From positions 448,001 through 512,000 of the forward strand of contig CP045477.1 of NCBI GenBank assembly GCA_009392915.1: DNA of 64,000 nt, read 5' to 3'. Source of the DNA: Candidatus Forterrea multitransposorum CG_2015-17_Forterrea_25_41. Its GTDB lineage: Archaea; Iainarchaeota; Iainarchaeia; Iainarchaeales; CSSED10-239. The translations under genes were made by a program, and so were the position numbers. This document shows positions 8,511-41,281 of the stretch, in pieces. The notes under the pieces were generated by a model, which had not been told where the DNA came from, made no database searches, and worked only from the letters and a program-made list of their open reading frames with translations. The stretch's first letter is position 1, and every line of letters begins with the position of its first letter.

Positions 8511-8776
8511 GTGTACAGGCACTTACTGGTCGAAAAACAGTTCAAGAAAACATTTAGCTTTATAAAATCTCAAGTCCGCAACCCAAAAAGCATCAAACAC
8601 TTAGGATACTGCTGCTTCCTTCCGGATCTGACAGGGTTTACTAAGATATTCGATCTTAATGGACGAACCGTCAGCAATTTTACAAAGAGTGCCTCCTTGC
8701 TTATTTGCCTTCCAGTAATAATCACTCCGGCTATGTAGATTTCCGGTAACAGGAGACTACAACCCCCCCAGCTAGC
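8511..8776 (-). ncRNA. ffs: signal recognition particle RNA (archaeal 7S-type)
   Basis: GC-rich island in AT-rich DNA; the minus strand carries the universal SRP helix-8 motif CUGUCAGAUCCGGAAGGAAGCAGCAG (compare E. coli 4.5S GUCAGGUCCGGAAGGAAGCAGC with a GGAA tetraloop); length about 270 nt fits archaeal 7S; the ends are approximate. Confidence 0.7.
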
Positions 8777-8884
8777 CTATACAAGTAATTAAAGTGACGA
8801 TACATTTAAAAACACTTTGGACAATATATATAACATAAAAATAATGTATTAATTCACTAAAAAACAAAAAAAGGTGTGTTAATA

Positions 8885-13228: not shown

Positions 13229-14158
13229 ATGGGATTATTTAAAAGAAAAACACCAGTTGTTCAAGAAAAAAAATCAGAATATGGACCAATTAACAGACTT
13301 GTAAGAAATGCTAAAGCAAAATCACAAGCAAAACAAAAAGCAAGAACACTAAAAGAAGTTGCAGAAATTAAATTTAATAAAATAAAAAGTGCTTTAAGAC
13401 TAAGACCTGCAAAAGTAAAAATAACTTATGAAGTTTTATCTAAAGAATATTCTTCTGCAGAAATTAAAAAAATAGATCAAAAACTTGCAATGCTTGAAAA
13501 AAGAGCAGAAGAAAGTCATAAAAGAATACTTGAACTTAAAGGTAAAACATTAAAAGATAATACAAATATCGAAGTTATTAATAGAAAAAAAATTGCACAA
13601 CAACTTCTTAAAGGAGAAGAAGTTAAAAGTATACCTAAAAGAAACGCAATTAATCCTGAAAGCTTAGAGGCAAATAAAGGAACAAAAGCATCTACTAAAA
13701 CCTTAAAAGAAATTGAAGCAGGAGATAAAAAAGTTTTAAAAACAAGAGAACTTGACAAACATTTTACTTCAGAAAAGAAAAGAGCAATGGTTTCAAAAGA
13801 AATAAGAAAAGAAATTGAGAATGCAAGATTAATAAATAAAGAAATTGCAAGTATTCAATCAATAAAATTTAATGACATTATAAAAAATCAACTAAAATCT
13901 TTTGGAACAATAGCAGAAACTAAACAAGCAAGAGAAGAAATTATTAAATCTCTTTACAATAAATATGAAAAAGGAGCAATTAATTTATCTGGTTTAAGAG
14001 ATTTAATTAAATATTTATCTGTTGAAGTTGAGATTGGTAAAAAAATGAATATTATAAATTCTGTTGAAAATGCAAACACTTATCTTTTAGGAAATGCTCA
14101 ACTTATAAATGAAATAAAAGATATTTCTGAAATAAAAAAGAAATTTAAGTTTTTTTAA
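13229..14158 (+). CDS. Lys-rich coiled-coil hypothetical protein
   Basis: ORF track; highly charged K/E-rich, predicted helical; no motif. Confidence 0.35.
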   Translation: MGLFKRKTPVVQEKKSEYGPINRLVRNAKAKSQAKQKARTLKEVAEIKFNKIKSALRLRPAKVKITYEVLSKEYSSAEIKKIDQKLAMLEKRAEESHKRILELKGKTLKDNTNIEVINRKKIAQQLLKGEEVKSIPKRNAINPESLEANKGTKASTKTLKEIEAGDKKVLKTRELDKHFTSEKKRAMVSKEIRKEIENARLINKEIASIQSIKFNDIIKNQLKSFGTIAETKQAREEIIKSLYNKYEKGAINLSGLRDLIKYLSVEVEIGKKMNIINSVENANTYLLGNAQLINEIKDISEIKKKFKFF

Positions 14159-14164
14159 AAAAAA

Positions 14165-14728
14165 TTAAAGTTTCTTTGAATAAATACCCCAAAGATAATC
14201 TTTTTTATCTTTGTGGGTTCCTATTTTTTTTAAATTAAAAGAAAGATGCTTATTAATTGATCTTTTATTTTTTATTGGACTTTCTAAAATCTCACAAATA
14301 TATAATGAAAAGTCTAAAGACTTTGCATGTTTAAACATCTCTTTATTTAAAGACTCTCCAATTTTTGGAAAACTTCTATTTGAGACTAACTGTTTACCAA
14401 AAAGAACTTTATTTTCTTTTAATAATTTTTCATCAACATCTATTTCTTCTAAAAAACTAGGATTAAGTTTAATATATTTCTTTAAACTATAAGCTAAAAA
14501 ATAACCAACAACTTCTTCTTTATTTTTTGCAACAAAAAGGAAAGTATTTTTACATCTTAAAGATTTTAAAAGATTTTCAATTGAGACTTCATAGACTAAA
14601 AAACCATTATCTGTAACTTCTTTTTTATTTATTTTTAAATTATATTCTAAAAGTTGAGATTTTTGTAAATTATATATTTGTAAAATATCGTTTTTTTTAG
14701 CTTTTGTAATATTTATTTCTGAATTCAT
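14165..14728 (-). CDS. hypothetical protein (possible GNAT-like acetyltransferase fold, weak)
   Basis: ORF track; weak resemblance only. Confidence 0.25.
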   Translation of the reverse strand: MNSEINITKAKKNDILQIYNLQKSQLLEYNLKINKKEVTDNGFLVYEVSIENLLKSLRCKNTFLFVAKNKEEVVGYFLAYSLKKYIKLNPSFLEEIDVDEKLLKENKVLFGKQLVSNRSFPKIGESLNKEMFKHAKSLDFSLYICEILESPIKNKRSINKHLSFNLKKIGTHKDKKDYLWGIYSKKL

Positions 14729-14774
14729 AGGTTATTACCAATTAAAATTATATTTTTCTTTTTAAAAAAAAGAA

Positions 14775-20805: not shown

Positions 20806-21510
20806 CTAAACTATATAACTAGATACAAAAAAGATTAAAAGACTTACTGGAAGTAAAAAACATAAATAAATCCAAACTTTCTTTGAATTACTATCAATCT
20901 GTGATAAATAAATTGAAGAAATTATAACATATTCAACTAAATATACAATTGCACAATAATAACTTACAATAAACAAACTAGAATTAGAAGTTAAACCAAC
21001 AACTGAAATATCAACAATTCCAGTTAAACTTTTAACCAAAGAAATTACAACCCCTAAAATCCCAGGAACAATAAAACCACCTGCAAAAAGAATAGTGTAT
21101 TTTTGCATTAAAAGAATTGAAGTTCTTTCATCAAACAATTCTCTTGATTTTAAAAAATCTTTAACTAAATTTTTATAATCTTTAGAAGTAACTGTTCCAG
21201 TAAAAACTGAATATTCTAAAAGATCTAAAAAATTTGAAAGAAAAGAAGAATTATATTTATTTTTTAAAATATTAAACACTTCTTTAGGGGTATGCCCTTT
21301 GTTTATTTTATTTAAAATTAATTTAAATTCAGAAGATATTAATTGATTACTGGAAGATGCAAGCTTTACTAAAATTACTTTTAGATCATTTGTTTTAACA
21401 AACCCAGAGATTCTTAAAACTTCATCAATTAAAGCATCTTCAAATTTCTTTCTCTTAATACTAAAAAAATAATCTCCAAATAAGTAATTTAAATACTTCA
21501 TTAATTTCAT
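20806..21510 (-). CDS. FlaJ/TadC-like (T2SS-F domain) half-protein: cytoplasmic helical domain plus C-terminal TM helices
   Basis: Domain layout and position immediately downstream of the secretion ATPase; weak sequence-level call. Confidence 0.45.
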   Translation of the reverse strand: MKLMKYLNYLFGDYFFSIKRKKFEDALIDEVLRISGFVKTNDLKVILVKLASSSNQLISSEFKLILNKINKGHTPKEVFNILKNKYNSSFLSNFLDLLEYSVFTGTVTSKDYKNLVKDFLKSRELFDERTSILLMQKYTILFAGGFIVPGILGVVISLVKSLTGIVDISVVGLTSNSSLFIVSYYCAIVYLVEYVIISSIYLSQIDSNSKKVWIYLCFLLPVSLLIFFVSSYIV

Positions 21511-21533
21511 AATTAATTAACTCTCATTTTTAT

Positions 21534-22280
21534 TTATGGAAGATTAGCTTTCATTGTTAGGAATATAAACATATCAATTATTGGAAATAAAATAACAATT
21601 ATAAAAATAACAGATAAAGGTGTAAAAGATAATTCTAAAAAATTACTACCAACTAATAAAAACATTAAAAACAAAGCAGGAACAATTGCAGAAACAACAA
21701 TATAGATTAAAGATAAAAGACTTAATTTAGTGGAATAATTTTTAATTAAATAATTTTGTTTTTCAATAATACTTGAAGATAATGTTCTTAAAGATTCAGA
21801 TTTATTTAAAGAACCAGTAGATAAAACATCTTCAATCTGATAAAAAACTCTCTTTAAATCTGAGTTTTCAACACCCACAGAAATAAAAGATTCAGAAAGA
21901 GAATAACCTAAGACATTTACTTTATATAAAACTTTTTTAATAATTTGCCCAATTAAAGAAGAATCAACTCTATTTTCTAAAGCAATTTTTAAAGAAATAT
22001 TCTTATCTAAATCATTTGCAAGGTTATTTAAGAAAAAAGGAATTTCTTTATTTATTTGTCTTTGATGATTTTGAAGCTTAATCTTGTATTTAAAAAAAAT
22101 AATAAAAAAGAACATAAAGAAAAACATAATAAATAAATTAAATAAATAACTATAAGATAAACTAATAACCACTGAATCAATTAATAAAAAAATAATTAAA
22201 ATTATTAAATAGAGAATAATAAATAACAAAAAGTTCTTTCTTGTAAATATTTCTTTCTTTAAAAAAATATAATCAATCAT
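21534..22280 (-). CDS. FlaJ/TadB-like (T2SS-F domain) half-protein; overlaps the ATPase gene by 8 nt
   Basis: N-terminal TMs, central cytoplasmic helical bundle, C-terminal TMs; operon context. Confidence 0.45.
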   Translation of the reverse strand: MIDYIFLKKEIFTRKNFLLFIILYLIILIIFLLIDSVVISLSYSYLFNLFIMFFFMFFFIIFFKYKIKLQNHQRQINKEIPFFLNNLANDLDKNISLKIALENRVDSSLIGQIIKKVLYKVNVLGYSLSESFISVGVENSDLKRVFYQIEDVLSTGSLNKSESLRTLSSSIIEKQNYLIKNYSTKLSLLSLIYIVVSAIVPALFLMFLLVGSNFLELSFTPLSVIFIIVILFPIIDMFIFLTMKANLP

Positions 22281-24036
22281 AATCTTTTCTAATTAATATT
22301 TCATCAATTATTTTTTCTTGTTTCTTATAAACTTTAAGATAATCTTTTTTATTTTTAATATCAAATGCAAATTTTAATTTATCATAGATTTTAATAGAAT
22401 CATTAACTTTAATTAATTTATTTTTATAAATATCAAAATAAAATAAAACATTTAAAGAAATTTTTCCATCTTTATATATAACTTCACAGATTTCAGTAAT
22501 ATTTCTTAAATCAATAGATTTACCTTTTAAATATTTATTATATCTTCTTTGAGTTATAATTAAATCAATTACACCTAAATCAGTTTCTAAAACACCATAT
22601 GACTTAAACCTTAATAGAGCTTCATTAGCACTTTGAGAATGGAAAGTTGTATATGTACCTTTTGCTTGACCACAAAGCATAGATTCAATTAAATATTTTG
22701 ATTCTTCTCTACTTCTAATTTCTCCAATAACAACTCTATCAGGTCTCATTCTTAAAGTGTTTATAACTAAACTTTCAAGATTAATTCCAATCTCAGGATT
22801 TACAAGTGTAAAAACTTTATGTTTATGAGGGATATTTATCTCTCTAACTTCTTCAACAACAACAAATCTTTCATCTAAAGGAACAAAAGAAAGTAAAGTG
22901 TTTAAAGTGGTTGTTTTTCCAGAACCAGTATTTCCAACAACAATTATATTTGAATCTGTTAAAAAACAAAGACTTAAAAAAACTAAAGCTTCTTTTGAAA
23001 CTGTATTAAAAGAGATTAAATCTTTAATTGTAAATGGTTTTTGAGAAAATTTTCTAATAGTAATACAAGCACTTTCAGTTATTGGGTTTATAACTGCATT
23101 AAGTCTTGAATTATCTTTAAGATAAGTATCTAAAATTGGATTTTTTAAAGTAATATATTTATTTGAGTGCCAAGAAAGTTTATTAATTAAATCCCTTATT
23201 ACTTGAGAAGAAGAATAAGAAAGATTACTTTCAAGCCAACCATAATATTTATGATAAACATAAAGTGATTTTCCTTCTCCAATAATTACAATTTCTTCAA
23301 GATAAGGATCTTTTAATATTTCTGTTAATGGTCCATAATTATAAAGATTATTAAAAGAAATATCTATAATATAATTAAATTGATCTTCTTCAAGCTCTAT
23401 GTTATTAACATAACAATAATCAATTAATTCTTTTTCAATATCTTCTTTTATTCTTTCAGTTGAAACTTTTTCAATATATTCTGTTCTAGTTTTATAAGAA
23501 TCTAAAATAAAGTTAATAACTTCAATTTCTTGGATTGAAAGATTTTGATGAAAAATTAAATATCTTTTAGAAGAATCTTTCATTTCAAATACATTTTTAG
23601 AAATATTTCTTAAGATTTCTTTTTTTAAATCTAAAACAACATAACCTAAATATCTATTAAGAATATATTTCTTTTCATCATCAGTAAACTCATCCATTAT
23701 CTTTAATAAAGCAGGATTATTTTTATAACAAAACATAGAAAAAGAACTTAAAGCACATAAATCACATTTATAAGCTTTATTTTTTCTTAAGATAATAGCA
23801 TTATGTGGACAAGCTTTAAGACACTCACCACACCCATCACATTTTTCAGAATCAATTGCTACAACGCCTTTAGAAACATAATAAATAGCATTTTTTTTAC
23901 AAGCTTTAATACAAGGAGCATCTTTACAATTGGTACAATTGAATACACAAGAAGAGTCTTTTTTTGTAAAATTGTAAGGACAATTTAGAAAAACATCTGT
24001 ATCTTTGATAAAATCTTCTGTTTTCTTAAGATACAT
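22273..24036 (-). CDS. FlaI/VirB11/PilB-family secretion ATPase fused to an N-terminal 2x[4Fe-4S] ferredoxin-like domain
   Basis: N-terminus: CTNCKDAPCIKAC and the canonical CDGCGECLKACP (CxxCxxCxxxCP). ATPase core: Walker A VVGNTGSGKTTTLN, Walker B/Glu RPDRVVIGEIRSREE, His box TTFHSQSA. Confidence 0.75.
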   Translation of the reverse strand: MYLKKTEDFIKDTDVFLNCPYNFTKKDSSCVFNCTNCKDAPCIKACKKNAIYYVSKGVVAIDSEKCDGCGECLKACPHNAIILRKNKAYKCDLCALSSFSMFCYKNNPALLKIMDEFTDDEKKYILNRYLGYVVLDLKKEILRNISKNVFEMKDSSKRYLIFHQNLSIQEIEVINFILDSYKTRTEYIEKVSTERIKEDIEKELIDYCYVNNIELEEDQFNYIIDISFNNLYNYGPLTEILKDPYLEEIVIIGEGKSLYVYHKYYGWLESNLSYSSSQVIRDLINKLSWHSNKYITLKNPILDTYLKDNSRLNAVINPITESACITIRKFSQKPFTIKDLISFNTVSKEALVFLSLCFLTDSNIIVVGNTGSGKTTTLNTLLSFVPLDERFVVVEEVREINIPHKHKVFTLVNPEIGINLESLVINTLRMRPDRVVIGEIRSREESKYLIESMLCGQAKGTYTTFHSQSANEALLRFKSYGVLETDLGVIDLIITQRRYNKYLKGKSIDLRNITEICEVIYKDGKISLNVLFYFDIYKNKLIKVNDSIKIYDKLKFAFDIKNKKDYLKVYKKQEKIIDEILIRKDYD

Positions 24037-31290: not shown

Positions 31291-33081
31291 TCATCCATAA
31301 GTAGTTGCTTTAATACTTTTAACTACACCACTTACAAGAACCCAGCCACCCCATTGACCAGTATTTCTGGATGAATTGGTTACAGATAAAGTCCAACCAG
31401 GTTCACTGTCACCAACTTCCCAATATTTACATTTTTTAGAAGAACCAAAAGCTTCTACTTTAATATTATAATTACCAGCAGGAACTTTCCAAGATCCATC
31501 TTTATCAGTTGCAAGTTGTGAACCACCATATTTAAGATATAAACCATCATTTCCATAATCATTAGTTATTGAACAAACATATGAAGCACTTGTTGAAGAA
31601 TAATTAAAAGTGAGACCTGCTTGAGAAGTATCATTTTCAGAAGCTAAACTAACTACTCCTTCTAAAACTAAATTACCTTGTGTACTTAAACCCTGGTAAA
31701 AGAAACCTGCAGAAGACCAAAATTCATTTAATTTAACACCACCACCTGAGAACGCAGGCTGAGCTACAACTGTACCACCTGATTGCGACCAACCAGACAA
31801 ACTAGTAATACTAGTTTGATTTAATAAAACTACAGCAGGAGCTGATAGAACAAGATTAATACTTGAACTTGTTGCTGTTCTTGAAGCACCATCTGTTACA
31901 GTTACTCTAATATATTTTGTACCAGTAGTTGAAAATGAATAAGTTGGATTTGAAACTGAAGTTCCAAAAACAATCCAAGTACTTTGATTTGTACTATATT
32001 CCCAGGAATAATTAGATACTCCAGAAACTGCATTACTTACAGAAGAATTAAAACTTATTGTTTGACCAGTATCATAATTTGTACCAGTTGTTGGAGAAGT
32101 AACACTTACAGCTAAAGGATCACTAATTAAAATATTACTAACAGTATCAGAATAAACTTGATTAATAGGAGAAGGTCTTGAAGCATCTGTAACTAAAACT
32201 CTAAACTCATAAGTCCCACCTGTTGCAAAACCATTTGTTGTAGTATAACTATTAGAACCAAAGTTAGTCCAACCAGTACTGTTTCTATTATACTGCCATT
32301 GATAAGATTTAGTACCAATTGCATTTGAAACACCTACATCAAATATTATTCCTTCACTAAGATTATAAACATCACTTGCATCAGGAGTATAAATAGTTGC
32401 TGTTAATGGAAGAACAACTGTAAAATCTTCACTTGAAGTTGAAATATCTCCAGTTCCAGAATCTGTTACTTTATAATAAATAGTATAGCTTCCTGTTGAA
32501 GATAAAGTTTGAGATAAAGAAGCACAATTAGTACCAACTGCAGTATTAGTATCATTTGAGTTTAATATCCATTCACAAGAAACTGTTGAAACATTATTAT
32601 CATAATTTCCAGTAAATGAAATTGTTTCATTATTATTCCAAGTAGTTCTTGACATTGTAATACTTGAAGATAACAAATCTAAAATATTTATTCCAATTGT
32701 TTGAGAATCACTTGAAGAATCAAAATCATCTAAAGTATCTAATTTAATTGAATAATCATTAAATACTGAAAAAGAATAACTTGTATTACAATCAGTACTA
32801 AAAGATGTAAATGATGGTAAGTCAGCTCTCTTATGACTCCAATTACAAGTTACATTTCCAACATTATTACTATATGAAGAATTAAAATTAATTGTTTTTG
32901 TAACATTATAATTTGATTCTTCTGTTGGATTTAATATTGTTGATGAAAAATCATCAAAAATTTCAACAAATAAATCATCACTAAAAGTTCCTTCATCATC
33001 ATTTGCAATTACTAAAATTTCATAAATTCCAGGAGTTGTAAAAGTATAAGAAATATCACACAAGGTATCTGAAGGATTCAT
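31291..33081 (-). CDS. S/T-rich, beta-rich repeat (PKD/Ig-like) surface adhesin-like domain; lacks its own signal peptide. The frame continues upstream through 46 sense codons to a single TAA that terminates the pilin-like ORF
   Basis: ORF track plus manual frame check (see findings); composition SSYSN, TGT, repeated roughly 90-aa modules. Confidence 0.5.
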   Translation of the reverse strand: MNPSDTLCDISYTFTTPGIYEILVIANDDEGTFSDDLFVEIFDDFSSTILNPTEESNYNVTKTINFNSSYSNNVGNVTCNWSHKRADLPSFTSFSTDCNTSYSFSVFNDYSIKLDTLDDFDSSSDSQTIGINILDLLSSSITMSRTTWNNNETISFTGNYDNNVSTVSCEWILNSNDTNTAVGTNCASLSQTLSSTGSYTIYYKVTDSGTGDISTSSEDFTVVLPLTATIYTPDASDVYNLSEGIIFDVGVSNAIGTKSYQWQYNRNSTGWTNFGSNSYTTTNGFATGGTYEFRVLVTDASRPSPINQVYSDTVSNILISDPLAVSVTSPTTGTNYDTGQTISFNSSVSNAVSGVSNYSWEYSTNQSTWIVFGTSVSNPTYSFSTTGTKYIRVTVTDGASRTATSSSINLVLSAPAVVLLNQTSITSLSGWSQSGGTVVAQPAFSGGGVKLNEFWSSAGFFYQGLSTQGNLVLEGVVSLASENDTSQAGLTFNYSSTSASYVCSITNDYGNDGLYLKYGGSQLATDKDGSWKVPAGNYNIKVEAFGSSKKCKYWEVGDSEPGWTLSVTNSSRNTGQWGGWVLVSGVVKSIKATTYG

Positions 33082-33219: not shown

Positions 33220-33744
33220 TTAAGAAGATGGAAGTTCTACAGCACATTTTCTTAAATCAATTGTTTTTTTAGGACAAGTAGAGTTTGATAAAGTAAAAAC
33301 CTTTAAATCTAAAGGATCAATTATTTCTCCAGAATCAACATTAATATCAGAATTTACAATTGTAAAATCAGTTGTTGATTTTAATTTTTTAATTTCTCCA
33401 GATAAAATAGGATTATCAAAATTACCATACATTTTTAGAACATTTGAAGAATTTTGAGAAGTTCCTTGAATATTTAAAGAAAGATTATAAAAATCAATAG
33501 GGGTTGGGTTTCTTAATAAAACTTCAATATTTCCAGTAGTTGAATCAAGATTACAAGATTCTACAACTAAATTATACTTAATACAATCCATTCTAGAAAC
33601 TTCTTGTAATTGATCTTGTGAAACATCTAATTTTTCTCTAACAGATGTTTTTGACCAAGATAAAAATCCTGCAACTAAAACAGCTGTTACCAAGATTAAT
33701 AAAACTACAGAAATTATTGCCGAAATTGATTTTTTTCTATTCAT
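33220..33744 (-). CDS. type IV pilin-like protein (class III signal peptide); probably the N-terminal part of a pilin-adhesin fusion
   Basis: MNRKKS|ISAIISVVLLILVTAVLVAGFLSW: basic residues, a small residue at -1, a hydrophobic helix (archaeal prepilin signature); in frame with the downstream adhesin ORF. Confidence 0.55.
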   Translation of the reverse strand: MNRKKSISAIISVVLLILVTAVLVAGFLSWSKTSVREKLDVSQDQLQEVSRMDCIKYNLVVESCNLDSTTGNIEVLLRNPTPIDFYNLSLNIQGTSQNSSNVLKMYGNFDNPILSGEIKKLKSTTDFTIVNSDINVDSGEIIDPLDLKVFTLSNSTCPKKTIDLRKCAVELPSS

Positions 33745-33830: not shown

Positions 33831-34172
33831 TTAAAAAGAAATAATATCATTTATTTTTATAAAAGAAATATCTGTTTCAATTGGAAGTTCAATTATATAT
33901 TTAGCTTTCTTTTTTGGAGAATAAAAAGTAAAAGGTCTTAATCTTTTTTTAATATCAATAACTTTTTTATTTGAATCTAGAAAAAGAACATTTATTGAAT
34001 AGAAAACAAAAAGCATATGAATTGAAGAGCCTACAATAGATTCATATTCTCTTTTAAAAATAAGACCAAAATCAAATTTCTTTCTTGGAAAAAACATAAG
34101 TCCAAGTCCTTGTTTTAAAGGAGAAATTATTTTCTTTTTTTTAATTATTATTTTATTATTAACTTTTATCAA
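33831..34172 (-). CDS. DUF192 (COG1430) family small protein
   Basis: GLGLMFF...FGLIF...IHMLFV.YSINVLFLD...YIIELP matches the DUF192 consensus. Confidence 0.5.
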   Translation of the reverse strand: MIKVNNKIIIKKKKIISPLKQGLGLMFFPRKKFDFGLIFKREYESIVGSSIHMLFVFYSINVLFLDSNKKVIDIKKRLRPFTFYSPKKKAKYIIELPIETDISFIKINDIISF

Positions 34173-34178
34173 AAATAA

Positions 34179-35330
34179 TCACACTTTTTTTTTTAAACTT
34201 ACCCTATATAAAATAACAAAATCAATATCAGATTTTCTAATCTCAAAATCAAAAAATACAGCATCTGGTACAAAAATAGCATACTCTGCACAAGAAAGAC
34301 CACATTCACTTTGATCAAAAGGTAAAAAATATAGATTATTACTATATGTTTTATCTAGAATATATTTAGAACTAATAGATTTTAAAGCAATGACTTCAGA
34401 AATATTTACTTGTTCTAGCTGATTACGATTCATATAGGTAATAGTGTCAATTAAAACACTCTCAGCATCTGGTTTTGGAACAGCAATTTGAAAGATTAAA
34501 ATTGTAAATATAAAAAATATGAAAATATATTTGATAAAATTAAAACTACTTTCTTCTTTTATTGCAAACATTATAAAAGAAATAAAGATAGAAAGAACAA
34601 TTGCCATATAAAGAAGGAAATTATCAAAAAATATTCTTGTTATTAAATCTTGATCTGCATACCATAAAAAATTATTACCTAGTATAATATTTATGAATAA
34701 AATTACAACTAAAAAGATTACAAATAAAACAATGGATAAATAATATAAATTTAAAAAATATTTTTTCTTTTGTGTTTCTTCTTTAAAAATAGAAATATCT
34801 TTTGAAATATTTAAAAGAACTCTATCAAGAGGTATAGAACTTTCTTTAAAAGTCTTTAACAATATTAAAGTGTGAGTGATTATTGGACTTTTAATAGTCT
34901 CATTAATACCTGATAAAGCATTTTCAAAATCATCTCCCCAAGAAACTCTATTTGCTATTCTTTTTATTTCTGTATCAATTGAACCATAAACATTTGATGT
35001 TGTGATATTGTTTAATGATATTGATAAATTATTTGTAGATTTATACTCTCTCGATAAATCTTGTAAAAAGAATGTAAAAGAAGTTTCAATTGCTTTCTTT
35101 TTAAAGTGTTTTAAAACATATTCTAAAACAAAACCTAAAAAACTTACGAAAAAACCAAAAAAGAAAACTGCATAGTATAATTCAGTATGAAGAAAATATT
35201 TATTTGATAAATGAACAATTAAAAGACCAGATAAAATACTTGCAAGAATTAATATTTGGTATTCATAATTATAAATTAATAGTTTTAATTTAATATTCAT
35301 TTTATCTAAAAATTTATTTTTTTCTATCAT
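34179..35330 (-). CDS. FlaJ/TadC-like polytopic membrane protein (T2SS-F-like half)
   Basis: TM helices flanking a cytoplasmic helical region; operon context. Confidence 0.4.
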   Translation of the reverse strand: MIEKNKFLDKMNIKLKLLIYNYEYQILILASILSGLLIVHLSNKYFLHTELYYAVFFFGFFVSFLGFVLEYVLKHFKKKAIETSFTFFLQDLSREYKSTNNLSISLNNITTSNVYGSIDTEIKRIANRVSWGDDFENALSGINETIKSPIITHTLILLKTFKESSIPLDRVLLNISKDISIFKEETQKKKYFLNLYYLSIVLFVIFLVVILFINIILGNNFLWYADQDLITRIFFDNFLLYMAIVLSIFISFIMFAIKEESSFNFIKYIFIFFIFTILIFQIAVPKPDAESVLIDTITYMNRNQLEQVNISEVIALKSISSKYILDKTYSNNLYFLPFDQSECGLSCAEYAIFVPDAVFFDFEIRKSDIDFVILYRVSLKKKV

Positions 35331-35346
35331 TTAAAAATCAATCTCT

Positions 35347-36189
35347 TCATTTATATAAAATCCCAATTAATACAAATTCAATTACTGCAAATATTATTGA
35401 AAAAATCAACAATGATTCTTTTAATAAAAAATAATCTGTAAAAGTTATAAAAAATATTATTAAAATAACAATAAAAAAGAAAAATAAAAATATTGACATT
35501 AAAAATAAAATATTAATTCTACTTTTCTTTTGTTCACTTAACTCTCTTTTAGATTGTTCTAAATTAGTTAAGAAATCAAGAATAACTTGATTTAAGTCTT
35601 CTTTTTGATCAATAACTTCAATTAATTTTCTAAAGAAGTTTTTTTCAACTTCAGAATATGTTTCAGAAATTATTGATTTAAAAGTATCTTTAAGATTATG
35701 ATTTCTTTTATTTAAAGCAATTATTTTCTTTGCTTCTCTGCTTAATATATCATTATTTTCTAAGTTTTCAAAAACATTCAATACATCTTTAATAGTTAGA
35801 TTTTCATCTCTTAAAACAGATAAATGTTTTATAGATCTTTGAAATTCACTACCAATTTCTTTTTTTATATTATTTAAAATAAAAAAAGGATATTTAAATA
35901 AAAGTAAAAAAATCATAAAAGCAAAAGTAAAAGAAATAAAAATAGTTATAAAAAAACTAAAAAGATTAAACAATATTCCAAGTCTAATCATTAAATAAAT
36001 AAAAGCAAACTCTATAACTATTAAAAAAAATATAGAAATAAAAGAAATATTTGAAATATAACTAATAGAATCTTCATTGATACCAGTATATTCTAAAACT
36101 CTATCAAAATTTTTAAAAGTACCTTTAAATTGCATAACAATATCTTTTAAGAAAAATAAAGATATACTTGTTAAGAATTTACTAAACAT
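35347..36189 (-). CDS. FlaJ/TadB-like polytopic membrane protein (T2SS-F-like half)
   Basis: N-terminal TMs, cytoplasmic helical domain (EIGSEFQRSIKHLSVLRDENLTIKDVLNVF), C-terminal TMs; starts 7 nt after the upstream stop. Confidence 0.4.
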   Translation of the reverse strand: MFSKFLTSISLFFLKDIVMQFKGTFKNFDRVLEYTGINEDSISYISNISFISIFFLIVIEFAFIYLMIRLGILFNLFSFFITIFISFTFAFMIFLLLFKYPFFILNNIKKEIGSEFQRSIKHLSVLRDENLTIKDVLNVFENLENNDILSREAKKIIALNKRNHNLKDTFKSIISETYSEVEKNFFRKLIEVIDQKEDLNQVILDFLTNLEQSKRELSEQKKSRINILFLMSIFLFFFFIVILIIFFITFTDYFLLKESLLIFSIIFAVIEFVLIGILYK

Positions 36190-36196
36190 ATTTTTT

Positions 36197-39100
36197 TCAC
36201 TTTATATCGAGTCTTTTAAACAACTCGTCCTTTTCATAATTATATTGAGAGATAATACTATTAAAATCTTTGTAATTGTATACTTTTGAATCCTTCATCC
36301 ATCTCATAAGTTTCTTTTTCTTTAAAAAATCAACAACATTTATTGAAGAAGATAAAAGATTAATATTGTATTTATTTTCGGATATTTCTAAATCTACAAC
36401 TACACTTTCATTTTTATTAATTATTTCTTTAATATTTACAATTTGATAAGTTTCTTTAAAACCTTGTTTAATTCTTTTAATTTCTATTAGAATAGATTTT
36501 TGATTAACCATTTTTAATTGTTCAATAAATTTATCAGCAACATTTGGTTTTATTGAAAAGATATTTAAGTTATACCAAGAAACATCAAAAATATCTTCTC
36601 CAAACTCATCAATTGCAATAATATCTGGTTTCTGAGAAATTGTTTGTTCAATAATTAAACGTTTACTTAAATCTGCATTATTTGTAAAAATTCTATTAAT
36701 CCATTCTTTTTGAGGAAGTTTAAATCTATCGTATGCCTGAACAGTTATAATTTTCTGATCAGGATAAAATAAAAGTATAGAATTATAAATTACAAAAGAA
36801 TCATCAACATCATGTAAAATAACTTTATAGTTTTCTGAAATTGCAGACCAGATATATGAAAATACATCTACAGAACCAATAGATGTATTAACTAAAGCAA
36901 CAGGTGTTAATGGTTCATCAAGATATTTTTTAATTACAAAAGAAGAACCTTTACTACTAGTATCTCCTAAAGAATAAAGACCTTCAACTTTATAACCATT
37001 AGGTAAATATCCATCAATCACAGGATGTTCTGGAGTTATATAGATACCCATATTTTTAGTTAAAATAGTTACAAAGTTATTTAACTCAATAATATCTTTA
37101 AAACTAATATTTGTTTTTAAAACACCATACTCTACATGGTAAACTATAAGATTTGATTTTTCACCAGAACAACTAACTTCAATTATTTTTTTATCAAGTA
37201 AAAGATTAGTTAAAATACCTAACCCAAAAAATTCTCTTTGAATAAATTTAAGATAAAGTTTTTGTTGTAATTTACCTAAACTATAAGATAATTTTTCAAC
37301 AGAAATATCAAATATTTTTTGAATATATTTATCAAGACTATGTTTATCTCCATTAAAAGAATAATAGTTTTTATCGATTGTATTAAAAAATACTTTTTTT
37401 AATTGAATATATTCTTTTTCTTGTTCACTATTAAGTTCTGGTTGTACTAAATTATAGAAAAGACCTTTAGTATTATCATAATGTATTGTAACATATGTAA
37501 AATCATCTATAGAATATTTATCAAAAATATTTTTTATATTTTCTTCAAATGAAGCAATAGGATCTTGATACACTAAAGAAGAAAATAGAGAATTGTCAGA
37601 AGATAATTTTTCTTGATATATTTCTTTATTTATTTTAACAGGATTTTTTCCAGCATCTTTTGGAAGGATATAATCCATACCTTTTTCTCTTAAGTCTTTA
37701 AATTTTTCTGCAATTAAATCATTTTTAACTTTCGGAGTTAATTTTACTTCTTTGATAATTTTAATTTCTTGTTCTTTTGGTAATGATTCTTTTTTAATTG
37801 TTTTAGATATTTTTTCATCATCATTATCTTCATCAGAATAATTCTCTTTTGAAGTAACTTTTTCTTCTCTTATAGAAGGAGAAATATATTTTTTATTTTT
37901 GTTTGAAATTTTAGATTTATCTTTTTTATTTTTAGGAGAAGAAATTTCTCTCATACCTTTATATATTCTTTCATCATCTTCTTTAGATAAATCAACATCA
38001 GAAAATACTTTTTTAACATCTTCTTCATCTTTATCTATTTTCTCATTTAAAACATTAACATCAAATTTTTCTTTTTCTTTTTCTTCTAAAGTTTTTGATT
38101 TTTTTAATTTAGAAATATTATTTTCAATTTCAGAATTTAATTTTACTTGATTATTATCAATTACAAAATTTGGTGTTTTTTCAGAAGATTCATTTGTTTT
38201 AATTTCAGAAGATAAAGAAGAATCTTCATTTAAAACTTTTAAATCATTTTTTGAATCTTTATCATATACAGAAAACTTATCTTCAACAGTGTTAGATAAA
38301 TCTTTAACATCATCTTCAATTGCAAAAATATCTGGAACTTCAATTTCTTCAAATAAACCATTAGCCTCACCTAAAGAAGAATTATTTAAATGAGAACTAG
38401 AATTTTTAGAATCTATTTCTAAATTACCTGTGTTTTTAGGAAAATCATTTGAATTTGCTAAAGTTTCTTTATTTTGAGAATCTTTATTTTTATTTACAGA
38501 TAAATGATCTATTTTTGAATATAAATTTTTAACATCATACTTTGGAAAATCAATTTTACTTTTTTTAGGTTTATCATCTAAAAAAGAAAATGATTCTAAA
38601 TAAACTTCTTGATCAAGTTTACTTGCTTTTTTATTTAATTGATCTAATAAATCATCTACATTTTCATTTTTTGATTTTACTTCTGAAAAAATATCATTTG
38701 ATTCTTTACTTTCAGAATATTCTTTTGGTTTAGATACATTTTCTAAAATATCTTTCAAAAGAGACATGGTTTTTTTATTATTATTTGATTCATCAAAATT
38801 TATTTCTTTTTTAATTGAATTATCAATATGATCTATTTTAGGCTCACTTATTAAAAATGAATTTGAAGGTTTTATTTTTTTTTCAGAAGATGAATCCGAA
38901 AGTAGTAGTTCATGAGATGAATCAGGGAGTAATAATTCATTATTAATTTTTGATGAAATTAATTTATTAGATGTTGATTTTTTATCAACTTTATCTAAAG
39001 GAACTTCTTTTTTAAAAATATTAGAATTATCAACCTTATCTAAAGGAACTTCTTTTTTAGAAATATTAGAATTATCAACTTTATCTAAAGGAACTTCTTT

Positions 39101-39547
39101 TTTAGAAATATTAGAATTATCAACTTTATCTAAAGGAACTTCTTTTTTAGAAATATTAGAATTATCAACTTTATCTAAAGGAACTTCTTTTTTAGAAATA
39201 TCTAAATTATCAACTTTATCTAAAAGAATCTTTTTTTTTCTAAAAGGATTAAAATCTTTATATTTTTCTTCAATATCAGAAGTGTCAACTTTTAAGTTTA
39301 CTTTCTTAACATCATTATAATTTTTATTTAAAGAAAAATCATCTTTTTTAGTTTCTGGTAAAACTACATCAAATTTTTGTAATTTTTTAGAATTACTATT
39401 ATTTTTTAAAGAACTATCAATTTTATCTTCTTTTAAAGAACTATCAAATTTATTATTTTTTACAGAATCTGAAGCTTTAGATATAGATTTAGATAGAGGA
39501 ATTCTTTTAATAACCTTAAAACCAGAAAAATTATCCTCTCCACCCAT
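36197..39547 (-). CDS. giant FlaI/PilB-like pseudo-ATPase: roughly 650-aa disordered K/D/S/E-rich N-terminal region with 5x DKVDNSNISKKEVPL repeats, plus a C-terminal FlaI N-domain and a degenerate ATPase domain with no P-loop
   Basis: C-terminal half aligns with the active ATPase at 22273-24036 (LLLDKKIIEVSCSGEKSNLIVYHVEYGVLKTNISF vs ILKDPYLEEIVIIGEGKSLYVYHKYYGWLESNLSY), but Walker A GNTGSGKTT is replaced by HDVDDSFVI and Walker B RPDRVVIGEIRSREE by KPDIIAIDEFGEDI. Confidence 0.6.
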   Translation of the reverse strand: MGGEDNFSGFKVIKRIPLSKSISKASDSVKNNKFDSSLKEDKIDSSLKNNSNSKKLQKFDVVLPETKKDDFSLNKNYNDVKKVNLKVDTSDIEEKYKDFNPFRKKKILLDKVDNLDISKKEVPLDKVDNSNISKKEVPLDKVDNSNISKKEVPLDKVDNSNISKKEVPLDKVDNSNIFKKEVPLDKVDKKSTSNKLISSKINNELLLPDSSHELLLSDSSSEKKIKPSNSFLISEPKIDHIDNSIKKEINFDESNNNKKTMSLLKDILENVSKPKEYSESKESNDIFSEVKSKNENVDDLLDQLNKKASKLDQEVYLESFSFLDDKPKKSKIDFPKYDVKNLYSKIDHLSVNKNKDSQNKETLANSNDFPKNTGNLEIDSKNSSSHLNNSSLGEANGLFEEIEVPDIFAIEDDVKDLSNTVEDKFSVYDKDSKNDLKVLNEDSSLSSEIKTNESSEKTPNFVIDNNQVKLNSEIENNISKLKKSKTLEEKEKEKFDVNVLNEKIDKDEEDVKKVFSDVDLSKEDDERIYKGMREISSPKNKKDKSKISNKNKKYISPSIREEKVTSKENYSDEDNDDEKISKTIKKESLPKEQEIKIIKEVKLTPKVKNDLIAEKFKDLREKGMDYILPKDAGKNPVKINKEIYQEKLSSDNSLFSSLVYQDPIASFEENIKNIFDKYSIDDFTYVTIHYDNTKGLFYNLVQPELNSEQEKEYIQLKKVFFNTIDKNYYSFNGDKHSLDKYIQKIFDISVEKLSYSLGKLQQKLYLKFIQREFFGLGILTNLLLDKKIIEVSCSGEKSNLIVYHVEYGVLKTNISFKDIIELNNFVTILTKNMGIYITPEHPVIDGYLPNGYKVEGLYSLGDTSSKGSSFVIKKYLDEPLTPVALVNTSIGSVDVFSYIWSAISENYKVILHDVDDSFVIYNSILLFYPDQKIITVQAYDRFKLPQKEWINRIFTNNADLSKRLIIEQTISQKPDIIAIDEFGEDIFDVSWYNLNIFSIKPNVADKFIEQLKMVNQKSILIEIKRIKQGFKETYQIVNIKEIINKNESVVVDLEISENKYNINLLSSSINVVDFLKKKKLMRWMKDSKVYNYKDFNSIISQYNYEKDELFKRLDIK
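38991..39230 (-). repeat. five near-perfect 45-nt tandem repeats (unit TTATCTAAAGGAACTTCTTTTTTAGAAATATTAGAATTATCAAC), in-frame within the pseudo-ATPase gene
   Basis: Seen directly; encodes (DKVDNSNISKKEVPL)x5. Confidence 0.9.
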
Positions 39548-39630
39548 AAATATGCCTTCTTTAAAATATATTTTAATATATAGATATTAGTTCATTAGAT
39601 TTATAAATCTTTAGATATTTTTTAATAGCT

Positions 39631-40362
39631 TCAAATAACAAAAGAAATAATTTTTGGAATAATTTCAAAAACATATAAAAGAATTAGAAAGATATAACTT
39701 ACTAGGATTAATATAATAAATGGAATTAAAGGAGAAAACCACACCTTAGAAATATTATGATTTTTAGCAATAACTTTAATTTTTTTAATTTCATTTTCTG
39801 GTTCAATATTTGGCATAAAAACAATTTTTGAAATTAATTTATTATTTTCTACATACAATTTTTCTAAAGGAGTATAAAAATTATTTACTTTTTTTAAAGA
39901 TAAAGGAACCCCTAAAAACATTAGATATAATGATTTAAAAAAATTATATTTAGGAAAATTTCTTGAAAATAAATTATATAAAAATAAGAAAACAGGTATA
40001 AGTAAAGTTAAAACTAAAGCAAAAAAGAAAATAAACATTGGAAAATATATATCAAAAATATTTGTAAATGATATTGCAAAAATAGTATAAAGATCCCCTT
40101 CTCCTATATATGTAAAATAACTAATCTTTCCTAAAACATAAAAAATTAATAAAAATATAAAACTTACAGCAAGTTGTATTAAATAACCTTTCCATAAAAT
40201 AAAATCTGTTTTAAAAACAAAAATACCTAAATAAAGAATACTAAAGATGGCTAAGAAAAATAAAGACATTATATTTATTTCTCTATACTTAATATCTTGA
40301 TAAGTTACATACAATAAAATAATTATAGAAAAAATAATTATTGGTAAATAAATATAATCCAT
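39631..40362 (-). CDS. A24-family prepilin/preflagellin peptidase (FlaK/PibD-like)
   Basis: Polytopic; first catalytic Asp in YQDIKYREINI, second in IGEGDLYT (a GxGDxK-like motif). Confidence 0.55.
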   Translation of the reverse strand: MDYIYLPIIIFSIIILLYVTYQDIKYREINIMSLFFLAIFSILYLGIFVFKTDFILWKGYLIQLAVSFIFLLIFYVLGKISYFTYIGEGDLYTIFAISFTNIFDIYFPMFIFFFALVLTLLIPVFLFLYNLFSRNFPKYNFFKSLYLMFLGVPLSLKKVNNFYTPLEKLYVENNKLISKIVFMPNIEPENEIKKIKVIAKNHNISKVWFSPLIPFIILILVSYIFLILLYVFEIIPKIISFVI

Positions 40363-40369
40363 AAGTTAT

Positions 40370-41281
40370 CTATATTGATCTTTTTGTAAGATACATTAAA
40401 TCTTTATAAGCTTTAACTTTTGTTTTTCTTGCAGTTGATCTTTCAAAAAGATTATCAGTATAATTTCCAGGAGGTCCTACTGATTTAATTTTTTTATTTT
40501 TAATTTTATTTAAAAGAATCTTATTCTTTAAATTATCATCATCTTTATCAAAAAAAGAAGTATTTAGATCAATTGTTAAAATACCACTACCAATCTCAGA
40601 AACATTATAACTTCCAGAACCAGCTGTAATATAGTTTGACATTTTACCAAGCTTAATTGCTGCTTCAAATTTATAAACAACATCATAACTTTTTTGATCA
40701 ATTTTATGAGTTAAATATTCACTAAAACTTGAAAGTCCTAAAGTCTTAAAAAACCTATGAAGCTCTAAATAATCTAAAATATGTCTTAATTTTCTTAAGA
40801 AAAAAGAATCATGCATATAATAAGATAAATACCCAATTGTTCCAGTATATGCTTCAACACCAATTTTTTTTTCTTTAATAATTTTTTCTAATTTATCAAG
40901 TCCTAAAATATAAGTTGCAGAATTTGATATAAGTCCAAAAGGATGTGCAATTGTTATTAAATATCTTTTTTTATAACAAAAATCAATTAATCTTTTAAGA
41001 GAAACTTTATCTTCATAAAGTATAGAATAATTATAAATACTAGCATCTTCAGAAAAAACTAAAACTTCTCCAGAATCAGTTAATATTTTAATACCTGGAA
41101 TTAATAATTTATCTTTTGGTTTAAATTTTAAAAGTTCAAAATATGCTTTTCTAGGATCTAAATAATTATATTCAGTTATAGCTGTACCTAAAAGATTATT
41201 TTCAGAAACTACTTTCCAATATTTTTTTGCAGACTCTTTATTTTTAAAAAGATGAGTATGCATGTCAATATTATATAACAT
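40370..41281 (-). CDS. PHP-family or metal-dependent phosphoesterase-like protein
   Basis: N-terminal IDMHTHL metal-binding motif, additional His/Asp motifs (AHPFG); tight operon context with the peptidase. Confidence 0.4.
   Translation of the reverse strand: MLYNIDMHTHLFKNKESAKKYWKVVSENNLLGTAITEYNYLDPRKAYFELLKFKPKDKLLIPGIKILTDSGEVLVFSEDASIYNYSILYEDKVSLKRLIDFCYKKRYLITIAHPFGLISNSATYILGLDKLEKIIKEKKIGVEAYTGTIGYLSYYMHDSFFLRKLRHILDYLELHRFFKTLGLSSFSEYLTHKIDQKSYDVVYKFEAAIKLGKMSNYITAGSGSYNVSEIGSGILTIDLNTSFFDKDDDNLKNKILLNKIKNKKIKSVGPPGNYTDNLFERSTARKTKVKAYKDLMYLTKRSI

Follow-up and report, generated by a model that had tools for sequence, protein, structure and literature searches.

A conserved FlaI/GspE-like protein without a P-loop in the ATPase slot of a pilus cassette of Iainarchaeota

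Can a pilus machine be built around a secretion ATPase that has lost its nucleotide-binding motifs? This question is raised by a gene in a stretch of 64,000 nucleotides from Candidatus Forterrea multitransposorum (contig CP045477.1, positions 448,001 to 512,000; the whole stretch is referred to as the window), which has a GC content of about 22% and carries an Archaea_SRP RNA at positions 8512-8783. To our knowledge, every described type IV pilus, archaellum, type II secretion system (T2SS) and Tad system is built on an active, platform-bound hexameric ATPase. The initial annotation of the window had described the gene at 36197-39547 as a FlaI/PilB paralog with ablated P-loop and a giant disordered N-terminal extension, i.e. 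as a pseudo-ATPase that takes the ATPase position in a pilus operon. The reading frame is real and encodes 1116 amino acids (aa), on the minus strand, which had been left unstated. The core of this reading is supported, as sequence, profile, fold, family-wide conservation and synteny are concordant, and the gene is better framed as a member of a conserved, Iainarchaeota-wide pseudo-ATPase family than as one odd gene. Its parts are:

36197..39547, minus strand: gene of the pseudo-ATPase, 1116 aa, FlaI/GspE-like and P-loop-less (ATG-to-stop open reading frame, translation)
36200..37594, minus strand: predicted FlaI/GspE fold, aa ~652-1116, with N-domain, degenerate RecA-like domain and PilB3_C-like helical end (phmmer, AlphaFold2, Foldseek, hhalign)
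37595..39547, minus strand: N-terminal extension of ~650 aa, rich in K, D, S, E and N, fast-evolving (AlphaFold2, composition, ratio of non-synonymous to synonymous substitution rates, dN/dS)

As the Pfam models failed on the C-terminal part, its homology to secretion ATPases had to be shown by comparison with PDB sequences, by profile-profile alignment and by fold search. A Pfam scan of the full-length protein gave no match at E<=0.01, and the T2SSE model (PF00437), which had been proposed as a check, matched 0 of 13 family members at E<=1, whereas PilB3_C (PF23989) gave a weak signal in 11 of the 13 (E<=1). The FlaI model of NCBIfam scored 108 bits with a cutoff of 550, and its match ends at the former Walker A. 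It was phmmer and hhalign that revealed the FlaI/GspE homology: phmmer against the PDB sequences found afGspE (2OAP; 9e-31, 110 bits) and FlaI (4II7, 9e-22; 4IHQ, ~1e-21), with bacterial CpaF being far weaker than both, and hhalign aligned the pseudo-ATPase family with 16 canonical relatives over 446 columns, from the N-domain through the C-terminal helices (probability 100, E=5e-55). The proposed structure prediction agrees with this. An AlphaFold2 model of aa 650-1116, based on a 40-sequence alignment, reached a mean predicted local distance difference test (pLDDT) of 88 and a predicted template modelling score of 0.86, and Foldseek placed 2OAP (E=3e-31, template modelling (TM) score 0.78) together with FlaI chains at the top of the PDB matches, with TM scores of 0.6-0.78 for 2OAP and 4II7 at E~1e-30 and with CpaF, PilB, VirB11 and PilT at lower ranks. 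According to the model, the C-terminal domain is a complete secretion-ATPase fold of the FlaI/GspE type, in which the two domains of the superfamily, a PAS-like N-domain and a RecA-like C-domain, are both predicted to be present.

The initial annotation had gone further and aligned the C-terminal 450 aa residue by residue with the intact ATPase at 22273-24036 in the same window. All segment pairs that it quoted do occur in a BLASTP alignment of the two proteins, but this pairwise match covers only ~210 aa (aa 773-981 of the pseudo-ATPase and aa 231-439 of the 587-aa ATPase, which is likewise encoded on the minus strand; 23% identity over 212 aa, E=2e-13), and it is the profile and fold comparisons with canonical FlaI/GspE proteins that span the whole C-terminal ~450 aa. 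In the BLASTP alignment, the Walker A stretch VGNTGSGKTT stands opposite LHDVDDSF, and in the Walker B stretch RPDRVVIGEIRS stands opposite KPDIIAIDEFGE. The replacement of Walker A and of Walker B with the catalytic Glu is confirmed by these pairs and by the 40-sequence alignment, from which the following motif columns were read:

36782..36814, minus strand: Walker A remnant, aa 912-922, HDVDDS--FVIYN, acidic, two residues shorter and without Gly-Lys-Thr (40-sequence alignment)
36596..36631, minus strand: Walker B remnant, aa 973-984, KPDIIAIDEFGE (40-sequence alignment, hhalign)

The lesions are the same throughout the family. The canonical Walker A, G(G/T)xGSGKTT, has become G-(G/E/D)D(S/A/N), two residues shorter in every member and HDVDDS in the window protein; the Asp box IEDTxE has become (I/V)Q(S/A)YD (VQAYD in the window protein), and the Walker B motif VGE(V/I)RG has become (L/V)D-x-F (IDEFGE in the window protein). 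Where the His box ATGH..T.H would follow, all members have a gap of seven columns after the Walker B remnant and no His at the aligned positions, and RQRP has turned into SE(R/K)P, so that its first Arg is gone. The column of the catalytic Glu (981) holds E, N, D, H, K, S, T, V or Q across the family, but its neighbors D980 and F982 do not vary. A cryptic P-loop elsewhere in the protein is ruled out, as a scan of all 1116 aa with the patterns GK[ST], G[KR][ST] and [AG]xxxxGK found none, in line with the earlier statement that no GKT or GKS exists anywhere. GK[ST] is absent from the ATPase domain in all of ~55 family clusters and in the further members P0066 and P0070; one member, P0058 (942 aa), carries a stray GKS at residue 411, within its N-terminal extension. 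As the P-loop, the Asp box, the catalytic Glu, the His box and the first Arg of RQRP are lost, canonical binding and hydrolysis of ATP should be lost with them, as had been proposed; we infer this loss of activity from the motifs. Walker A, the Asp box/Walker B Glu and the His box all define the superfamily, and neither they nor a score above the curated family threshold are found. Because four sequence-defined features are missing and the curated thresholds are not reached, the protein is, by its sequence, filed as a pseudo-enzyme derivative and not as a member of the FlaI/GspE family.

Could the remodelled pocket nevertheless bind, or perhaps even hydrolyze, a nucleotide or another ligand? 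The region of the former active site does not drift freely, as it has acquired new family-specific invariant residues (Q937, D940, D980, F982 and W991), and the B subunits of A/V-type ATPases are a precedent for nucleotide binding without a P-loop. Such a cryptic enzyme would, however, have to work with a P-loop that is two residues shorter and so acidic (DDS, GDS, EDN) that it should repel phosphate, it would have to cope with the joint loss of four motifs and the deletion of the His-box segment, and it would do so with an unconstrained catalytic-Glu column and a domain that is missed by the T2SSE model of Pfam in 13 of 13 members at E<=1. We therefore regard this explanation as very unlikely.

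The same lesion is found in a whole family. Two database searches yielded ~55 clusters at 90% identity with lengths of 757-1209 aa, plus fragments, and in an exhaustive search of 1.84 billion representatives, 16 of these, as representatives at 50% identity, scored 690-1008 bits, after which the scores drop to ~200-260 bits, where the canonical enzymes lie. P0070 (824 aa, 235 bits) is a distant member in which the P-loop is likewise missing. In a neighbour-joining tree, which with its Poisson-corrected distances is crude, the P-loop-less proteins form one clade in 100 of 100 bootstraps (75 of 100 if P0070 is included), nested among canonical FlaI/GspE-like proteins and far from the clade of the ATPase at 22273-24036, which is fused to a ferredoxin domain. 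The motif loss has a single origin, in an ancestor of one Iainarchaeota (Diapherotrites) clade. The gene is present in 16 metagenome-assembled genomes (MAGs; one genome per species was scanned) that are named Candidatus Iainarchaeum, Candidatus Diapherotrites, 'Candidatus ainarchaeum' or archaeon; in the NCBI taxonomy, Iainarchaeum belongs to the Iainarchaeota within the kingdom Nanobdellati (DPANN). The term “paralog” of the initial annotation needs to be corrected in this respect: the protein is of the FlaI/PilB type, but it is no close paralog of the intact ATPase in the window, as it belongs to an afGspE/FlaI/PilB3-like clade separate from the ferredoxin-fused one. A recent tandem duplication of the neighboring active ATPase is ruled out for the same reason.

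Since the loss of the motifs, the domain has been held under strong purifying selection. Compared with the closest relative (L003), it shows 44 synonymous and 8 non-synonymous differences (dN/dS 0.039), and with more distant relatives, for which the synonymous rate is saturated, dN/dS is 0.14-0.33. Sixty columns are invariant among 13 family sequences. Conservation is highest at the end of the N-domain and in the linker (aa 841-880; 0.83-0.86; PNGYKVEGLYS.GD.SSKGSSF.IKKY) and lower in the former active site. Clear homology, clade-wide loss of catalytic residues and purifying selection, by which a pseudoenzyme is recognized, are all observed here. A decaying pseudogene, or a spurious long reading frame in AT-rich DNA, might have been suspected, as the full protein has no Pfam match and the closely related P0035 (1101 aa, with its C-terminal 467 aa identical to those of the window protein) is labelled 'hypothetical protein' by NCBI. 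Decay is refuted by the conservation data: there are more than 50 intact orthologous reading frames of 790-1200 aa, dN/dS is 0.04 with 60 invariant columns in 13 sequences, synteny is fixed in 16 species, and 1116 codons are uninterrupted at 22% GC. This explanation has practically no probability left.

Some FlaI-like proteins outside this family have unusual motifs as well. Motifs are partly degenerate in P0151 (514 aa; L024, L025), whose contigs are about 4 kb long and which has GKH for GKT, ILDRVSG for VGEVRG and TTFFS for T.H, and in P0128 (610 aa), which has GTGRT and TFDA. Both proteins may have been inactivated independently. P0139 (1159 aa) and P0072 (1086 aa) are canonical FlaI-like ATPases of other organisms with large intein-like insertions, which in one of the two lies inside Walker A (GTATGK|C...HN|TT) and in the other just before the His box.

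Where does the pseudo-ATPase gene reside? In the window, it is embedded in a cassette with the following neighbors:

39631..40362, minus strand: PibD/FlaK-type archaeal prepilin peptidase, immediately upstream of the pseudo-ATPase (Pfam Arc_PepC_II 5.8e-10, Peptidase_A24)
35347..36189, minus strand: first split FlaJ/TadC half with one T2SSF domain (Pfam T2SSF 2.1e-9; NCBIfam ArlJ/FlaJ 5e-9; syntenic in all loci)
34179..35330, minus strand: second split FlaJ/TadC half (Pfam T2SSF 2e-8; syntenic)
33831..34172, minus strand: DUF192 protein, the constant last member of the cassette (Pfam DUF192 2.9e-9; in all loci that reach far enough)
33220..33744, minus strand: pilin-like protein of 174 aa with the class III signal-peptide-like N-terminus MNRKKSISAIISVVLLILVTAVLVAGF (read from the sequence)

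The assignment to the ATPase slot of a pilus operon stands: the upstream neighbor encodes an archaeal A24 prepilin peptidase, the downstream ones encode two T2SSF halves of one domain each, and there is also a protein whose start resembles a class III signal peptide. When the window proteins were compared by tblastn with all loci, the order PibD, pseudo-ATPase, T2SSF half a, T2SSF half b, DUF192 turned out to be constant, and the cassette is kept in the 16 species-level MAGs plus L001, L002 and L023. The recurrence of P-loop-less FlaI homologues beside split FlaJ genes, which had been suggested for a survey, is thus seen in 16 species-level MAGs. In almost all related loci with upstream sequence, PibD precedes the pseudo-ATPase. 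The two T2SSF halves directly downstream, an adjacency that is characteristic of the secretion-ATPase superfamily, are present in all related loci. The pilin-like protein has no match in Pfam and NCBIfam and is weakly conserved downstream in 8 loci. Usually, a 303-aa metallohydrolase-like protein and a beta-CASP RNase are encoded ahead of the cassette, and often a pilin-like protein is encoded behind it.

P0061 (626 aa, GGTATGKTT), the nearest relative in which the P-loop is retained, is encoded in a comparable cassette, in which the ATPase is followed by T2SSF(292), T2SSF(399), three small genes and DUF192, and in which the platform is split as well. From this arrangement it follows that the dead protein sits in the slot that elsewhere is occupied by an active ATPase, and most likely the inactivation occurred in situ, within the cassette.

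If the cassette's own ATPase is dead, which ATPase could energize pilin extraction? The only candidate in the window is the intact enzyme of a second module, as a third T2SSE homologue was not found by tblastn in the 64 kb:

22273..24036, minus strand: intact ATPase of 587 aa, in which an N-terminal 2x[4Fe-4S] ferredoxin domain (aa ~33-95) is fused to T2SSE (Pfam T2SSE 2.3e-35 and Fer4 families)
20806..22280, minus strand: second split FlaJ/TadC pair, that of the active ATPase, with halves at 21534-22280 and 20806-21510 (Pfam T2SSF 5.4e-7 and 3e-3)

All motifs of this ATPase are intact (GNTGSGKTT, VVEEVRE, IGEIRS, TTFHS). The gene order of the active module is ferredoxin-fused ATPase, two T2SSF halves and a VTT/DedA protein, and its FlaJ pair is syntenic in L010, L019, L020 and L021. 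Each of the two platforms of the window (20806-22280 and 34179-36189) is encoded by a pair of genes that carry a single T2SSF domain apiece, and this is constant across all related loci. In L010, the whole ferredoxin-ATPase module directly follows the DUF192 gene of the cassette on the same strand; on JAQVTI010000004.1, 18 kb with the same genes as in the window lie between the two modules, and NODE_1490_length_41531 carries the pseudo-ATPase and the ferredoxin-fused ATPase on one contig. For three more pairs of the two proteins, the longest contigs agree exactly in length (160638, 63384 and 18638). At E<=1e-80, the ferredoxin-fused family comprises at least 267 clusters from Diapherotrites/Iainarchaeota and Micrarchaeota; it is far wider than the dead family and therefore independent of the dead protein. 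The fusion itself suggests a redox-sensing pilus motor, and a search of the open-access literature found nothing on ferredoxin-fused pilus ATPases.

The initial annotation had considered mixed hexamers of the two proteins. In such a mixed ring, the dead protein and the ferredoxin-fused ATPase would alternate in a hetero-hexamer as in F1 or V1, with one ring serving one pilus machine. Rings of catalytic and non-catalytic paralogues have precedent, the two genes share a contig and are adjacent in L010, and the window has exactly one dead and one live T2SSE homologue. Mixed hexamers are nevertheless disfavoured, because the proteins are distant (23% identity over ~210 aa), fall into different clades and have separate platform pairs. 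The dead protein is nearer to afGspE (110 bits) than to its neighbor (60 bits), and the N-terminal regions are unrelated, being intrinsically disordered in one case and a ferredoxin domain in the other. That each ATPase has its own split FlaJ pair speaks for two separate ATPase-platform assemblies, and the ferredoxin-fused family works without a dead partner in Micrarchaeota and other Diapherotrites. Altogether, we consider a mixed ring quite unlikely.

Instead, we favor, with a degree of confidence that goes only a little beyond an even balance, that the protein descends from a FlaI/GspE-type ATPase, has become catalytically inert and was kept as a platform-docking scaffold or regulator, with energy being supplied by the ferredoxin-fused module and with the extension acting as tether. 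The argument for a non-catalytic, platform-docking subunit is that the fold is kept, the motifs were lost once, purifying selection persists, the slot is fixed and an intact ATPase module is linked to it. Mechanistically, the pseudo-ATPase, probably assembled into a ring, would still dock under the two FlaJ pieces of its own platform and play a structural or regulatory part there. Pilin extraction would be energized in trans by the ferredoxin-fused T2SSE module, which adjoins the cassette in L010 or lies 12-18 kb away on the same contig. The disordered extension of ~650 aa with its four short conserved islands may function as a flexible tether or as a recruitment arm.

Several points weigh against this reading. 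P-loop-less RecA-type subunits can bind nucleotide, as subunit B of the A/V-ATPases does, and non-canonical binding is thus conceivable also here. A third T2SSE ATPase, encoded beyond the 64-kb window, could be the real motor of the cassette. Moreover, a dedicated platform pair is odd if the energy comes from another ATPase that has a platform of its own.

The retained platform-facing fold would also agree with a brake or lock, in which the dead ring holds the filament static or blocks retraction or assembly, as a negative regulator or clutch. The loss of catalysis and the position of the strongest conservation in the N-domain and linker, a region that forms subunit contacts in FlaI/GspE rings, fit well to this idea, and DPANN archaea are thought to attach stably to hosts by pili. 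A brake would leave unexplained how the filament is initially assembled on that platform, and why a 650-aa extension with motif islands is conserved. We think that it is unlikely.

The scaffold reading can be extended to a two-module type-IV-filament machine, in which the Fe-S ATPase, as a redox sensor with its own split platform, would cooperate with a second split platform under a permanently nucleotide-free FlaI-like ring, whose disordered arms of 650 aa would use their conserved linear motifs to recruit or organize further components of the cytoplasm. We put this forward tentatively, as a possibility that we ourselves would rather doubt. If it is true, the dead ring would be a stator or hub, and the machine would represent a new class of pilus architecture in archaea that might serve for host attachment.

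What is the nature of the extension to which a tethering role is ascribed here? The description of the N-terminal ~650 aa as a low-complexity region is borne out: K, D, S, E and N make up 62% of residues 1-650, there is no Trp and no Cys, and in the full-length AlphaFold2 prediction pLDDT is below 50 for 532 residues of the protein, including the segments 1-264, 267-295, 354-414, 419-456 and 537-614, so that most of the first ~650 residues are predicted to be disordered. No hydrophobic or transmembrane segment was found in the extension (maximum 19-residue hydropathy 1.21), and membrane anchoring by this part is ruled out by the lack of a hydrophobic stretch. The extension evolves about ten times faster than the domain (dN/dS 0.38 vs 0.04 in the closest pair) and varies from ~300 to ~750 aa among members, and it stays an open frame despite the 22% GC of the DNA. 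Its conspicuous elements are:

38507..38659, minus strand: best-conserved island, aa 297-347, D.LL..L..FLE.FSFLDD.PK..KI....V.NLYSKID (column conservation, 37 members)
38982..39239, minus strand: 45-bp tandem repeat, 5.7 copies, with the 15-aa unit KKEVPLDKVDNSNIS, aa ~104-189 (Tandem Repeats Finder score 463, 96% matches)

Further conserved islands are located at aa 399-412 (EEIEVPDI..IEDD), aa 459-478 and aa 625-631 (DYILPKD), and L304, E318, F322, P327 and L342 are invariant. AlphaFold2 predicts a helix plus two strands for the island at aa 297-347, with moderate pLDDT, and a small helix/strand element for the third island (aa 459-478), with moderate confidence. Such short conserved motifs in a disordered extension could be used in searches for binding partners.

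The initial annotation had named the extension “repeat-bearing”. The 15-aa repeat exists, but it is a polymorphism at strain level and no feature of the family. There are five copies in the window protein, four in P0035 and none in the 99%-identical P0034 and P0036, and because the copies differ between near-identical proteins, the repeat is a recent slippage polymorphism. As a functional or defining feature it was rejected, as its copy number varies among near-identical strains and other members have no repeat. As a separate observation, PibD and the disordered arm form a local divergence hotspot between the window strain and L003: across 3886-6601 of L003, which corresponds to 37601-40362 of the window, PibD is 86% and the N-terminal extension 79% identical, while the strains otherwise are ~97-98% identical.

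How does the pseudo-ATPase compare with known systems? With afGspE (2OAP) and FlaI/ArlI (4II7, 4IHQ), it shares a fold of two domains followed by a C-terminal helical element, which aligns over its full length, and the vicinity of its gene to those of a FlaJ/TadC-type platform and a PibD-type peptidase. It differs from them by the absence of nucleotide motifs, by scores below the family thresholds and by the disordered extension of ~650 aa. The cassette is no FlaI/ArlI operon either, as it is made up of PibD, two T2SSF halves, DUF192 and a pilin-like protein and lacks the archaellum genes FlaH, FlaX, FlaF and FlaG, and the score of the pseudo-ATPase stays below the FlaI equivalog threshold.

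Makarova, Koonin & Albers (2016, PMC4858521) described archaeal genomes in which ATPase/tadC operons are duplicated and have pilins in common. That paper makes no mention of inactivation: the words 'inactivated', 'catalytic' and 'disrupted' are absent, and 'Walker' occurs only as an author name in the references. In Haloferax-type PilB/PilC systems (PilB3), there are likewise two ATPase-platform modules per genome, one of which is linked to pilins and peptidase, but there both ATPases are presumed to be active, whereas here one module is dead clade-wide.

Functional analogies may rather be sought in non-catalytic partners of other motors. FlaH/ArlH reportedly serves the true motor ATPase as a RecA-like regulator and scaffold that hydrolyzes ATP weakly or not at all. 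It is KaiC-like and keeps an ATP-binding Walker A, whereas the pseudo-ATPase is a FlaI homologue without a P-loop and with its own platform genes, and the analogy therefore is a functional one. The alpha subunit of F1 and subunit B of the A/V-type ATPases are non-catalytic paralogues that are essential structural and regulatory ring members, and A/V-type B has no canonical P-loop. These rotary subunits belong to a different ASCE family and alternate with close paralogues in one ring, whereas here the candidate partner is distant and has a separate platform. PilU is said to be a PilT-dependent retraction ATPase, i.e. an accessory paralogue that relies on another motor ATPase. In contrast to the pseudo-ATPase, PilU keeps its catalytic motifs and hydrolyzes ATP.

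A P-loop-less or inactive FlaI/PilB paralogue was not found in open-access papers, although an earlier description may exist elsewhere, and nothing relevant was found in the open-access literature on DPANN pili; the earlier statement that such a component is not described in archaeal pilus or archaellum systems accords with this. A selected, clade-wide dead ATPase in the slot implies that a motor-shaped, non-catalytic subunit can be integral to such machines. It would be a natural separation-of-function variant, in which the structural role of the ATPase ring, be it platform gating, pilin recruitment or regulation, is set apart from the supply of energy. This would surprise specialists of type IV filaments, and we infer the mechanism for organisms that are uncultivated. 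There is also a practical aspect: because Pfam misses the family and NCBI labels its members hypothetical, this annotation blind spot means that censuses of pilus ATPases in DPANN archaea miscount the systems or call the operon ATPase-less.

Some observations concern the surroundings of the cassette. In L002, a T2SSF-DUF192 fusion (13268-14752; 494 aa in the source gene call) was not counted as such, because there is an in-frame stop between the two parts (table 11); the 494-aa call is either a gene-calling artefact or a read-through. Two neighboring genes of the window may be added:

31291-33081, minus strand: PKD-domain, Ser/Thr/Asn-rich protein of 596 aa, downstream of the pilin-like gene (Pfam, synteny)
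40370-41281, minus strand: protein of 303 aa that starts with MLYNIDMHTHLF (weak CehA/McbA metallohydrolase match)

The PKD-domain protein has no recognizable signal peptide at its predicted start, and its position is kept in L003 and L004. The homologue of the 303-aa protein is missing from the position before PibD in L010; in most loci, the protein is encoded just upstream of PibD, and its identity of 57-81% is higher than that of any protein of the cassette.

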